37,265 nucleotides of DNA from a virus (IMGVR_UViG_2731957842_000006), one strand, 5' to 3'; positions 23,188-26,878 are shown, counted from the first letter of the stretch. The notes: generated by a model from the sequence alone, not told the origin. Translations and numbers: made by a program.

Positions 23188-23474
23188 ATACTGTGCTGGC
23201 CCCCGGAATAACACGAATTACCAAGAGAGCCCGCACTGGTCTTTCCGGTGGCAAACAGCACCCCTGCTAACATAAAAGATAAACACCTTCCAGACGCAAA
23301 AATACTAACAACTGTTTTTCAGATATCCAAAATATATTTGGTTTTTATTTTTGAAAATATGTATACATATGTATCATAAATATACAAGCCATATCATAAC
23401 CGAATTAAAAATCTTTAGTTATCTCTTTTGCCGTCTGATCACCACCCACCGGCAGCTGAGAATTCCGGCACACA

Positions 23475-23537
23475 ATGAAAAAGGCCCGCCAGGGCGAGCC
23501 ATAAAAACTGAATAAAAAAACCGCCCGGGGCGGCGGC
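23475..23537 (-). repeat. copy B of the roughly 66-bp repeat with terminator hairpin (CCGCC-CGG-GGCGG plus T-run, 23512-23536)
   Basis: Direct repeat of 22795-22860 at high identity; located downstream of the tRNA-like pseudogene. Confidence 0.6.
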
Positions 23538-23902
23538 TAAAACGATAAAAGGACACAATATTATAATGATTATTGGGTTTGGGGCATCGGGTGCCTCCCG
23601 AAGTATTCCACTTTACGTGGATACTGTGGTTTCCCGCTAAACCGACTCTATAAACCACCCTCGCACTGAGGAACGCCCCAATTCATGTTTTCCGACACAG
23701 AGATGGCGCATCACTGGTTACTCCACGCTAAATCCTGCTTCCTTTCGTGGGCAATGCGCCATTTCTGTGTCATAAAAAATACAGCACTGAGTCTGTAACC
23801 GATCTCCATTACAGAATGAGGGACGATAAAGGTATTAAAGAGATCTGTTCCTCACGAAAACCGCCAGTGCTGTAAAAACTTGTCCAAAAAACAATGAAGT
23901 TG

Positions 23903-23976
23903 CGGAGAACAGGAATCGAACCGGCATTACCAACCTAAGGCTGATGTAATAACCACTATACGATACCTGCATATAG
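23903..23976 (-). pseudogene. degenerate tRNA-Gly-like sequence (acceptor and anticodon stems do not pair)
   Basis: Shares D-arm and T-loop (GGTTCGATTCC) with the tRNA at 23113-23187 but the anticodon arm is rearranged and acceptor halves are not complementary. Confidence 0.3.
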
Positions 23977-24491
23977 AGCAGGCCTCCGTAACCACAATAA
24001 TGACACTGATACCGATAACAGCCCTTCATTATGATTAAACGGATGCCAGCAATGACCCGCAAGACAGCGGGTAACACCCCTGTGAACAGAAACTTGCTGC
24101 CTTTCGGGTCGAGAGTAATATTACCGATAATTTATATGACATCAAAAACTAATTAGTTTTCATATTTAAACATATGTATAAATATGTATCAGACGCATAC
24201 AATTTATGTTATTTCATCCAGACTTCTGATTTCTCACAGGAAATTGCGAAAAAAAACAACATAAAAATGAACAAATTGGGAGTACGCTAACTCCGTTGTC
24301 GCAATAAATCACAGTAAGCTCTTCAGAAATAACAGTTCACAAGACTTACATCAACAGTAGTTTTTGTAATGATTAATGTTAACTGTAGCGTTGAAAAGAA
24401 AAGTTTTGACGAAATATGGTGAACTAACAGAGCCTAACGAATAGCCCTATTACGCCGAGCTAATAGCGCTGCCAGCTAAACTTGCATGGAA

Positions 24492-24568
24492 TGGTCCGCC
24501 ACCGAGGACTCGAACCTCGCACAATCAACTTAGAAGGTTGATGCTCTATCCCGATGAGCTAGTGGCGG
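24492..24568 (-). tRNA. tRNA-Arg (anticodon UCU, reads AGA)
   Basis: Hand-folded 77-nt cloverleaf: acceptor CCGCCAC/GTGGCGG, anticodon arm TCAAC-CTTCTAA-GTTGA, T-arm CGAGG-TTCGAGT-CCTCG, encoded CCA. Confidence 0.85.
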
Positions 24569-24570
24569 AA

Positions 24571-24646
24571 TGGTGGCCCTTGCTGGATTTGAACCAGCGA
24601 CCTGGCGATTATGAGTCGCTCGCTCTCACCACTGAGCTAAAGGGCC
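24571..24646 (-). tRNA. tRNA with CAU anticodon, Ile2 (lysidine-type, reads AUA)-like; could alternatively be Met
   Basis: 76-nt cloverleaf GGCCCTT ... anticodon loop CTCATAA ... T-arm GCTGG-TTCAAAT-CCAGC ... AAGGGCC-A-CCA; resembles ileX-type tRNAs; 2 nt from the tRNA-Arg. Confidence 0.8.
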
Positions 24647-24786
24647 GATTGAAAAATATTGACTGAATCAGTTTAGCGCTGTAATCCACCCAACACAACC
24701 GTTTAAATCTTGTATGTCAGCTACAATCAAGTAAAAATATCTGAACAACAAGCAGAAAAGTCTATATCCCGGTTACTCATAATGTT

Positions 24787-25500
24787 TTAGCGCACTTTGA
24801 CTATATTAATTTCAAATTCATCTGTATGTGCGCTATTAAGTATAACGAAATTCGTACTACCGTGCCTGTACGATTTTGATAAAACCAAGCGATCACCATA
24901 GCGAGCAAGAACGTAATACCAAACGCTCTCATAGTGAAGTGTCTGATACTCCTTCTTAAACTGAGGTTTGTACCATCCAGCAATAAGCGAAAACAACCAG
25001 AAATAGAGCATGAATCCGGCCATAACACACTCAATCTTGTGATGCCGAATAAAAGACACTTCAGAAATACATTTAACGTAAATAAACTTCCTGCCCGTTC
25101 TGACGAACATGGTAATTATTAATGCCACAATAGCGCATAAAACCAATGCATCTGGTACAAAGTGCTGATGAATTACCGAAAACTCCAGAGCCGGAGGAAC
25201 AAAAAGCAACAATATCGCAAGAAAAAGCCTGACAGCACTCAAATCCTTCATATTATTTTTTTGTTTGATCCCCAGAAAGAAGACAATACCGATCCCCCAT
25301 CCAGCCAAGAATATAACGATAACTGTGACAGCATAAAACAGGCTTCTGGCCACATCATCAACACCGGCCCCGACAACCCACCATGGAAAGCCATAGTAAA
25401 AGGAAGTACCCCAGCCATAGAAATAAGCACTTCCCCACCCAAGACACCCCATGTAAGCAACAAAAAGTGAAGAATTCCTGAGCAGAGTACTGTCACTCAT
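24787..25500 (-). CDS. AT-rich polytopic membrane protein (about 237 aa), cargo gene
   Basis: Several hydrophobic helices, W/Y/F-rich; roughly 40 percent GC by eye; start MSDSTLL at 25500 with AGAGG Shine-Dalgarno; AT-rich upstream region. Confidence 0.5.
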   Translation of the reverse strand: MSDSTLLRNSSLFVAYMGCLGWGSAYFYGWGTSFYYGFPWWVVGAGVDDVARSLFYAVTVIVIFLAGWGIGIVFFLGIKQKNNMKDLSAVRLFLAILLLFVPPALEFSVIHQHFVPDALVLCAIVALIITMFVRTGRKFIYVKCISEVSFIRHHKIECVMAGFMLYFWLFSLIAGWYKPQFKKEYQTLHYESVWYYVLARYGDRLVLSKSYRHGSTNFVILNSAHTDEFEINIVKVR

Positions 25501-25837
25501 AATCATCCTCTAACAACTTAACAACATTAACTCGCTTTACATAACAAAGAAAATTCCATGTAGTCAAGAGGGTTCAGGAAAGGAGAAACTAAAATTGCAT
25601 AGCCATCATAAAGTTTAACGTACCAACCTGCTTTTTCAGGTATAAAAAAACCAACCTCAAGGAAAGGCTGGCATAAGAAAAGTAAATAATGATTCCACTA
25701 AAACTTCGTCGCAGGAGGAATCCTGTGCCGCTTAACATACATAAAATTTAGACAACTAACAATCACAATATAAAATATTTAAGATTTCGTTATCAAAATA
25801 CCAGTCAGTAGAGCGCCAGCTCTCCCGTAGATGGTTA

Positions 25838-25870
25838 AACATAACAACAAAACCCGCTCAATGGCGGGTT
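25838..25870 (-). terminator. intrinsic terminator-like hairpin (AACCCGC-CATTGA-GCGGGTT plus T-rich tail on the minus strand)
   Basis: 7-bp stem followed by TTTTGTTGTT. Confidence 0.4.
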
Positions 25871-26118
25871 CTGGTGAAGTTCATGCGATTAATTCGCCAC
25901 GCGATACAGCTTTGCGAAGCGTATCGGAATTGAAGCAGTTTATGCGTAAGAAATCAAGCCATTTTTTGAGCAAATGATTCTCGCATGGGAATGTATAGCG
26001 CACACTCAGCAACAGCCAACCAATTAGCAATTCGCTTTGACCAGTTGTATATGCGCCATTGCTGTCTCCAATGGCGCTGTAGGTTGCCAGTTGTTCAGGC
26101 TGGCTTACGAATTATAAC

Positions 26119-26291
26119 TCATTCCCGAATCACCTTGAAACCGAGCCTTTCAAGATATTCAATGAATGCCTCGATAGATAAAATTACATGATTATCAGGG
26201 ATTAACGTTGCGTAGATAACTTCCCCATTCTCAACGCGCACAGCAAAGAGGCCATTTTCACTAAAAATTTCACGTAATTCTTCAATTTTCA
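26119..26291 (-). CDS. small hypothetical protein (about 57 aa, MKIEELREIFSENGLFAVRVENGEVIYATL...)
   Basis: Not in the ORF track (short); found by manual translation; GGAAGGA Shine-Dalgarno-like sequence upstream; exact ends uncertain by 1-2 nt. Confidence 0.3.
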
Positions 26292-26412
26292 TCAACAGAA
26301 TCCTTCCAGATAAATAGCACCCCCCTGTTCGGGGTCCATCCCTCTTCTCCCTGCGCGCTACTTAAGTATTTTTGATTCTATTCCGGCATCGTCCATAACT
26401 TCAAACGTATTG

Positions 26413-26444
26413 AAAATAAAAACAAAAACCCGCCGAAGCGGGTT
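26413..26444 (-). terminator. intrinsic terminator downstream of hok (AACCCGC-TTCG-GCGGGTT followed by TTTTTGTTTTT)
   Basis: Perfect 7-bp stem with U-tract about 70 nt after the hok stop. Confidence 0.45.
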
Positions 26445-26512
26445 AAGTGCGGGTGCGTTGAAGATGCCTGACACATCATAGGCGGCGAGGGATTTCTCCC
26501 TCGCCTGGTCTC

Positions 26513-26668
26513 TTACTCCTCAGGTTCGTAAGCTGTGAAGACAGCGACCTCCGTCTGGCCGGTTCGGATTCGTACCTCGCAGAGGTCTTTCCTCGTTACC
26601 AGTGCCGTCACTATGACGGTTAAACAGATGACGATCAGGGCGATTAACATCGCCTTTTGCTGCTTCAT
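26513..26668 (-). CDS. hok: Hok/Gef-family type I toxin (51 aa)
   Basis: MKQQKAMLIALIVICLTVIVTALVTRKDLCEVRIRTGQTEVAVFTAYEPEE: single transmembrane helix plus conserved C-terminal Hok motif; long leader with hairpins; track ORF 26513..26725 is an in-frame extension. Confidence 0.8.
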   Translation of the reverse strand: MKQQKAMLIALIVICLTVIVTALVTRKDLCEVRIRTGQTEVAVFTAYEPEE

Positions 26669-26878
26669 AGCCTGCTTCTCCTTGCCTTTCGGCACGTAAG
26701 AGGCTAACCTACATTTGTGAGACATAGATTGGGCCTCAGATTAATGTTAAGCGTCTTGCAGGACGCGTAATGTTAACTGGGGCTTTTCTCTATCTGCCTT
26801 TGGTGTTCATGCCCGAGGCAGATAGCCTCAAGCACCCGCAGCAATTCTACTTAACTCTCCTTTTCCCGCAAACCGTTT

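Follow-up and report, generated by a model that had tools for sequence, protein, structure and literature searches.

What does a lambdoid prophage carry in the AT-rich stretch between its Hok toxin gene and its tRNA genes, and what could the encoded protein do for the bacterium? The question is raised by positions 24,787 to 25,870 of the viral sequence IMGVR_UViG_2731957842_000006, whose 37,265 nucleotides (nt) we call the window. A preliminary description, made by reading the sequence alone, had seen here an independent cargo unit: an AT-rich gene with its own terminator, for a multi-helix membrane protein of about 237 amino acids (aa) that belonged to no recognisable family and might act in superinfection exclusion or abortive infection. 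The open reading frame (ORF) at 24787-25500 is a real, conserved gene under purifying selection. Its product can now be placed in a named family.

A gene of the TfpB/STM1630 family

The ORF delimited mechanically runs from 24787 to 25506 on the minus strand (239 codons). The Shine-Dalgarno sequence GAGGA (25510-25506) lies 5 nt 5' of the second ATG (25500); the first in-frame ATG, at 25506, overlaps it and is thus left without a Shine-Dalgarno sequence of its own. Because all homologues also start at the second Met, the product is 237 aa long, in agreement with the early estimate and with RefSeq, which holds the same protein as WP_001285363.1 ('hypothetical protein'). The two features are as follows:

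24787..25500, minus strand: coding sequence, 237 aa plus stop, of a predicted inner-membrane protein assigned to the TfpB/STM1630 family (PF27470); from the ORF, RefSeq, phrog_1521, homologues, the AlphaFold2 model and dN/dS
25506..25510, minus strand: Shine-Dalgarno sequence GAGGA; read directly from the sequence, homologues beginning at the second Met

The ORF is far beyond what chance would give, since it has 103 homologues among 5.8 billion proteins, matches phrog_1521 with an E value of 1.7e-85, and shows ratios of nonsynonymous to synonymous substitution (dN/dS) of 0.05-0.19 across prophage, plasmid and Salmonella copies, indicating strong purifying selection. In pairwise comparisons the ratio was 0.14-0.18 against prophage and plasmid copies that are about 80% identical, and 0.05-0.06 inside the 434-like group and the Salmonella group. 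The exact protein sequence of the window is present on 308 contigs, and 1197 of 5426 complete E. coli genomes have a match at the DNA level, O157, O26 and O111 strains included.

All 103 homologues, one of them 98% identical, have a precomputed match to PF27470, a family newer than our local Pfam copy and given there as PF27470:TfpB. Some copies, among them one about 80% identical, are named 'STM1630 family protein' by RefSeq/PGAP. The local Pfam-A gave for the window protein only a sub-threshold chance match (PF23532, 16 bits against a cutoff of 27), and NCBIfam matched neither this protein nor the copy that RefSeq calls 'STM1630 family', so that name must derive from the newer Pfam model. 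By these profile matches the gene belongs to PF27470 (TfpB, or 'STM1630 family'); these matches supply the family that could not be recognised by eye. The family is small, with only 69 clusters found in a profile search of 1.84 billion representatives. Its distant full-length members occur in Pasteurellaceae, Neisseriaceae and Moraxella, where one is named 'protein tfpB' by JGI, and alignment of the enterobacterial profile to Moraxella tfpB with hhalign gave a Prob of 99.5% (E 4.7e-23, 227 columns). The traits of the family were all found in the alignments and in the AlphaFold2 model: a length of about 235-260 aa, an N-terminal aromatic/Gly motif, a helical membrane core and a C-terminal beta domain.

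Three relatives are informative. The first is STM1630 of S. Typhimurium (SL1344_1560, 238 aa, encoded between the SPI-2 effector genes steB and sseJ; SPI-2 is Salmonella pathogenicity island 2), a full-length homologue, 46-48% identical, that shares the length and the N-terminal motif and is likewise AT-rich and horizontally acquired. The published STM1630 deletion primer (PMC6785131) translates to the N-terminus of the orthologue, which confirms the homology, and the Salmonella diarizonae orthologue adjoins sseJ and dalS. Unlike the window copy, which is a prophage gene, STM1630 is a fixed gene of a chromosomal islet with no Q gene, tR' or tRNA genes nearby, and it is driven by its own distal, H-NS-bound promoter, active in conditions that induce SPI-2, whereas the window copy has a different promoter-like motif. 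The second relative, the TfpB of Moraxella bovis/lacunata that gives PF27470 its name, is about 25% identical to the window protein and has the same architecture and the motif AY-YGWG...YG(F/Y)PWW...ARSL; however, it is encoded between the pilin genes of an invertible locus and not in a prophage. The third, the 'putative membrane protein' CPT_434_68 of phage 434 (identical to WP_001302581.1 of O157:H7), is 57% identical. It is the first ORF past the Q gene and an annotated terminator, and its 5' leader and promoter-like motif are conserved, but the Q gene in front of it is of the Q82 type, and in place of tRNAs its downstream neighbours are TciB/DUF3927, a small membrane protein and a nanS-like esterase. 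A search of the literature on TciB/DUF3927 returned nothing usable. As judged from these comparisons, the gene links the prophage protein, STM1630 and TfpB as one named family, and results obtained with each may now inform the others.

Position at the head of the late operon

The surroundings of the gene agree with the first account of them. On the upstream side lie hokD (coding sequence at about 26513-26668) and sok (RF01794 at 26663-26800, E 6e-16), and on the downstream side tRNA-Ile(CAU) at 24571-24646 and then tRNA-Arg at 24492-24568, the first tRNA 141 nt past the stop codon. Beyond these are tRNA-Gly, the genes for two holins and that for an M15 endolysin. The GC content is 41.0% in the ORF and 36.9% in the 374 bp upstream of it (25507-25880), compared with 47.4% in the whole window and about 50% in the hok region. 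The base composition of the gene is therefore unlike that of its neighbours, as is typical of a moron. The features that flank the gene are these:

25954..26040, minus strand: C-terminal remnant of a DUF1133-type Q-like antiterminator; RefSeq pseudogene, intact in E. coli RM11911, breakpoints
25848..25873, minus strand: intrinsic terminator about 80 nt past the Q remnant; -16.7 kcal/mol, z -4.95
25650..25672, minus strand: intrinsic-terminator hairpin with T-run; -12.9 kcal/mol, z -4.5
25593..25842, minus strand: lineage-specific insert of 250 bp that separates the Q-proximal terminator from the conserved leader; BLAST breakpoints against the related prophage locus L003
25538..25567, minus strand: promoter-like motif, -35 TTGACT at 25567-25562, 18-nt spacer, TGtTATGTA; conserved block
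24492..24646, minus strand: tRNA-Ile(CAU; Met according to ARAGORN) and tRNA-Arg(UCU); tRNA prediction, annotation, Rfam

We examined 80 viral loci from IMG/VR that carry the family gene, and in 76 of them it is preceded by a gene for the late antiterminator Q, of the Q82 type in 46, the lambda type in 23 and the DUF1133 type in 7. Q ends 183-457 bp upstream in 74 of these 76, the other two being L044 (about 2.5 kb) and L052 (about 1.3 kb). Thus the gene behaves as a mobile module that can stand behind any of three Q families: a Q82-type Q (PF06323) precedes it in phage 434, in O157:H7 E32511 and in strain 135, and a lambda-type Q (PF03589) in other copies. What follows it varies, with tRNAs, TciB, an esterase or a holin in different loci. 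A tRNA(CAU) begins 114-146 nt past the stop codon in about 30 of the 80, and no conserved partner gene was found across the loci, the chromosomal copies being solitary.

In the window, Q is deleted. Comparison with E. coli RM11911 revealed a 1.32-kb deletion, with its junction at about 26036-26038, in which DUF1367 and DUF1364 are lost and only the last 85 bp of the gene for a DUF1133 protein are kept. In RM11911 this protein is intact and Q-like (phrog_753, E 1.3e-77; PF06530, 28.4 bits, above the cutoff). Because the deletion removed nearly all of the Q-like gene, the window prophage is left without its late-gene activator and should fail to switch on its late genes. The stretch 25843-26038 is 91% identical to L003, and prophages whose DUF1133-type Q is intact share the terminator at 25848-25873, which is probably the tR' of that Q type.

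Alignment of 46 distinct upstream regions showed a constant order, in which a tR'-like hairpin about 140-165 nt before the ATG is followed by a promoter-like block and a ribosome-binding site. In the alignment, the window hairpin at 25650-25672 falls on the tR'-like hairpin found ahead of the gene in other prophages. The block has the form CTCTTGACN-N14-TTGTTATG, with CTTGAC in 42 of the 46 sequences, TTGTTATG in 40 and identical spacing in 39. In the window it resembles a sigma-70 promoter, with the -10 at 25543-25538 and the TG at 25546-25545, and in rearranged copies (L008 and a plasmid of enterotoxigenic E. coli (ETEC), L028) homology starts at or just upstream of it. From this conservation we infer that the motif at 25538-25567 is the gene's own promoter, placed past tR'. 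In the 5' leader, the folding of 25507-25650 is not unusual (z 0.07), and Rfam, run on 24300-26800, found sok, the two tRNAs and only sub-threshold matches besides, with no known leader RNA.

The 250-bp insert is present in full in only 5 of the 5426 complete E. coli genomes and has no Rfam match. A promoter scan found in it the promoter-like site TTGATA-18-TATATT (25796-25767), with the terminator 25672-25650 about 100 nt downstream, and the insert could be a short-RNA gene or the relic of another pR'-tR' cassette.

The claim of an independent cargo unit with a terminator needs to be amended accordingly. Two strong hairpins with T-runs do exist (25873-25848 and 25672-25650), but both are upstream of the gene, and the interval from the stop codon (24787) to tRNA-Ile (24646) showed no such terminator. 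The gene is AT-rich, patchily distributed in lambdoid phages, found behind three kinds of Q and provided with a sigma-70-like motif, all of which agree with cargo; it is not a fully insulated unit, because it has no terminator downstream and the tRNA genes follow about 140 nt on. We therefore describe it as a cargo gene with a predicted promoter of its own at the head of the late operon.

Predicted architecture of the protein

The window product was described from the start as a multi-helix membrane protein, and both hydropathy, with four clear transmembrane (TM) peaks, and the AlphaFold model, with five helices, agree. An alignment of 28 close homologues gave a poor model, with a predicted local distance difference test score (pLDDT) of 62. 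With distant members added, the pLDDT rose to 77.9 and the predicted template-modelling score (pTM) was 0.70. In this model helices span 10-36, 47-78, 89-111, 116-135 and 155-181, the first of them an aromatic/Gly-rich helix absent from the hydropathy peaks; residues 142-153 form a short amphipathic stretch, and about 55 aa at the C-terminus (184-235) fold into a five-stranded beta domain. Lys and Arg number 4 in loop 79-91 and 6 in loop 134-156, against 1 in loop 37-55 and 0 in loop 112-116. By the positive-inside rule the protein would probably have its N-terminus inside and five TM helices, with the beta domain and the conserved motif of TM1 and loop 1 on the periplasmic side.

Conservation is strongest in helix 1 and the loop after it, AY-YGWG-S-YYG(F/Y)PWW...ARSL. 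The residues conserved across the family are only Ala, Gly, Pro, Tyr and Phe (A15, A25, Y26, Y28, G37, P39, P102, F167, G175 and Y195), and no charged, nucleophilic or catalytic residue is conserved over the whole family alignment; for this reason the protein is unlikely to be an enzyme or an ion-coupled transporter. Structure searching brought no relative. Foldseek gave best E values of 0.07 against BFVD and 0.37 against the Protein Data Bank (PDB), so that no solved structure or viral model was matched significantly, and the profile had no match at E <= 10 among all PDB sequences. A similarity of the modelled beta domain to an SH3-like fold (KorB-C in Foldseek, prob 0.66) is only suggestive. 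An MscS-like mechanosensitive channel, which recurred among the Foldseek rows, was rejected, the rows being non-significant and the topology opposite.

What the protein may do

While the identity of the gene, its architecture and the logic of its genomic position are solid, its physiological role has to be inferred. With moderate confidence, we favour an accessory (lysogenic-conversion) function: the product would be a non-enzymatic inner-membrane protein of lambdoid prophages with a role in host association rather than in lysis. The gene would be cargo placed at the very start of the late operon. Its own promoter would let the lysogen produce the protein, and this cryptic prophage could do so although it lacks Q; on induction, read-through promoted by Q would add to expression. 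Judging from STM1630, H-NS probably silences the AT-rich locus, and host-associated conditions switch it on. At the periplasmic face the protein would bind a conserved component of the envelope, with no catalysis or transport, and the effect would be a modest change in the envelope behaviour or fitness of the carrier during its association with an animal host. It would have no role in lysis nor, primarily, in phage exclusion.

Such a gene would resemble bor, lom and stx, which are accessory genes of atypical composition inside the late transcription unit of lambdoid phages and may have promoters of their own. There is no relationship in sequence or fold to any of the three. Bor and Lom reside in the outer membrane and the toxin Stx is secreted, whereas the window product is a predicted inner-membrane protein.

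The experimental evidence comes from Salmonella. In strain 4/74 STM1630 is bound by H-NS and is expressed in SPI-2-inducing medium and in macrophages, and in ST313 strains it is silent, two changes in the -10 box being the cause; its deletion left growth in LB unaffected and increased intramacrophage replication in 4/74, and attenuation of mutants in calves and chicks is cited as well (PMC6785131 Text S1). In expression networks STM1630 falls within a cluster co-regulated with SPI-2 (PMC2639726), and an STM1630 mutant was hypermotile in a screen (PMC4219756).

Copies in E. coli and in a viral contig also lie at virulence loci. An intact copy lies on the ETEC plasmid NZ_CP122817.1 (L028, 4994-5707), 867 bp from and divergent to eltAB, which encodes the heat-labile enterotoxin. 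Another lies near spa40 on the invasion plasmid (pINV) of enteroinvasive E. coli (EIEC) and Shigella (L030, 3888-4604), present on hundreds to more than 1000 contigs. Intact copies thus persist in virulence plasmids ridden with insertion sequences (IS). A pseudogene (L029, 4001-4635) adjoins tRNA-Arg and iroBC. These three settings suggest that virulence loci of this kind contain pieces of the region that follows Q in lambdoid prophages. In IMGVR_UViG_2859677112_000002 (L095, 1540-3714) a homologue 68% identical begins 235 bp past a Shiga-toxin B gene (PF02258, E 3.5e-45), itself preceded by a 315-aa ORF of the size of StxA, as in an stx1-like operon. In Pasteurellaceae and Neisseriaceae the gene is solitary among unrelated housekeeping genes, at a site that differs by genus and with no pilin gene nearby. 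Taken together, what is known of STM1630 and the fact that virulence plasmids have kept copies give a weak indication of an envelope role in host adaptation.

Several observations weigh against this interpretation. The experimental data come only from STM1630, and its phenotypes are mild and partly irreproducible. Hypermotility was not among the confirmed phenotypes of clean deletions (PMC4534456), and on that ground we rejected a motility role via STM1630. The scarcity of transposon insertions, which made STM1630 appear essential, has been ascribed to shielding by H-NS (PMC6785131 Text S1). Salmonella uses a different, more distal promoter, whose regulation may not transfer to prophage copies; the -10 of the prophage motif is weak (TATGTA), and the conserved motif could be another kind of site. 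The association with virulence loci may be hitch-hiking, as the gene adjoins a cargo insertion site and tRNAs. Finally, the topology and the proposal of binding instead of catalysis are model-based predictions.

Of the rival explanations, the one that survives best, although we consider it unlikely, is that the gene is a single-gene defence, as was first suggested: a membrane protein made by the lysogen would block genome entry or kill the infected cell, by superinfection exclusion, abortive infection or another mechanism, or, in a variant, would serve as orphan immunity to a toxin that targets the membrane. In favour of this, the module consists of one gene, is self-contained and has its own promoter-like motif in a classic cargo slot, the modelled product is a polytopic inner-membrane protein, and the gene is scattered horizontally as a solitary gene in several families. 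P22 SieA, T4 Imm, HK97 gp15 and lambda RexB are likewise prophage-borne inner-membrane proteins that act alone or nearly so. A distant subfamily is found in an islet beside icd; there, in L013 (3176-4815 and 6001-6741), its member P0152 adjoins an ATPase that matches AbiLi (PADLOC, E 6.5e-63), together with a partner ORF of 167 aa and fragments of a SRAP domain, in a setting that looks like a defence island. However, no positive evidence for an exclusion or abortive-infection role emerged: PADLOC had no family at E <= 1 for the window protein and no match for P0152 itself, and every PHROG match is annotated 'unknown function'. PHROG and PADLOC revealed no detectable homology to SieA, Imm, gp15 or RexB either, and in several genera the TfpB family, by contrast with these, is represented by conserved genes of the chromosome. 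Conservation of the Salmonella copy between S. enterica arizonae and diarizonae (dN/dS 0.05) and the co-regulation of STM1630 with SPI-2 are both unusual for an exclusion protein. The most conserved motif is common from Moraxella to E. coli, suggesting a cellular partner and not a variable phage target, and fixed solitary chromosomal copies in Salmonella, Pasteurellaceae and Neisseriaceae fit a cellular or host-adaptation role better.

More speculative is a further reading, which we regard as a long shot: a self-sufficient mobile inner-membrane module, spread by phages, virulence plasmids and islets among animal-associated Gram-negative bacteria, whose periplasmic aromatic motif binds a universal component of the envelope. 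Candidates for that component would be the N-terminal helix of type IV (pseudo)pilins and lipid-linked intermediates. Were this true, the gene could represent a new single-gene system for exclusion, immunity or control of a surface organelle, and both Moraxella tfpB and Salmonella STM1630 would gain a function.

Another rival is that the protein, like its namesake in the Moraxella pilin inversion locus, is a partner of type IV pilins or pseudopilins, binding their hydrophobic N-terminal helix in the inner membrane and so modulating pili, competence or type II secretion in the lysogen, which we think improbable. To our knowledge, all taxa with family members encode type IV pili or related systems, and the conserved element is an aromatic motif of the membrane interface. 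In Moraxella (L023, 4336-7507; L025, 4394-6606) the full-length homologue tfpB lies between two pilin genes, and in L023 a gene for a Piv-type (IS110-family) recombinase/invertase stands beside them, matching the classical invertible pilin locus. Outside Moraxella, however, no copy that we examined is near a pilin or pil gene, and we found no function for Moraxella tfpB in the searchable literature. The characterised pilin accessory proteins TfpY, TfpZ and FimB are predicted to have three N-terminal TM helices and larger periplasmic beta domains, composed of a mixed beta-sheet and an antiparallel sheet, and are encoded directly 3' of the major pilin (PMC11841053). Compared with that described architecture, the model with five helices and a small beta domain differs and no pilin is near the window gene, so a TfpY/TfpZ/FimB-like identity was rejected.

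Equally improbable is an accessory role in the lytic cycle, in which the first gene after tR' would tune lysis or the envelope through holin timing, membrane energisation or the periplasmic wall. In most phage copies the gene is indeed the first ORF past Q, pR' and tR', with no terminator before the downstream late genes, and the protein has a predicted periplasmic SH3-like domain, a fold that often serves cell-wall binding. Against this, phage 434 has the gene and its relative 434B does not: in 434B the whole region from Q to lysis was swapped for DLP12 DNA and the phage still grows (PMC9119081), so the gene is dispensable for lytic growth. Few sequenced phages carry it (a homologue is present in only 3 of 50,697 phage records), and intact copies under selection are found far from lysis genes, on the Salmonella chromosome, on plasmids and in Pasteurellaceae. 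In the window the annotated holins are about 2 kb away, separated from the gene by three tRNAs and about 1.3 kb. Pfam and PHROG gave no match to holin, antiholin or spanin families, nor did the homologues turn out to be housekeeping transporters or established lysis regulators, the outcome that would have refuted the preliminary description by its own standard.

Returning to the accessory function that we favour, the gene as it stands is an ordinary hypothetical cargo gene in a named family and not a new kind of system. What the analysis yields is the family assignment, the connection between the prophage gene, STM1630 and TfpB, and a conserved promoter-like element after tR'. The family is common yet little studied, and since it is widespread, under selection and located at the most strongly transcribed spot of lambdoid prophages, it is a reasonable target for further work.

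Two neighbouring stretches of the window deserve mention. Between tRNA-Arg and tRNA-Gly, about 1.3 kb (23190-24490) contain no ORF above about 80 aa and are unannotated in RefSeq; the GC content falls to 30.7% at 24100-24399, the whole stretch is present in only 4 complete genomes, and it may be decayed cargo. On the other side, directly 3' of hokD, 26423-26504 on the minus strand has a sub-threshold Rfam match (26.7 bits against a gathering score of 50, E 0.004) to isrK, an Hfq-binding small RNA from a Salmonella prophage, and this isrK-like stretch ends in a terminator at 26444-26427.

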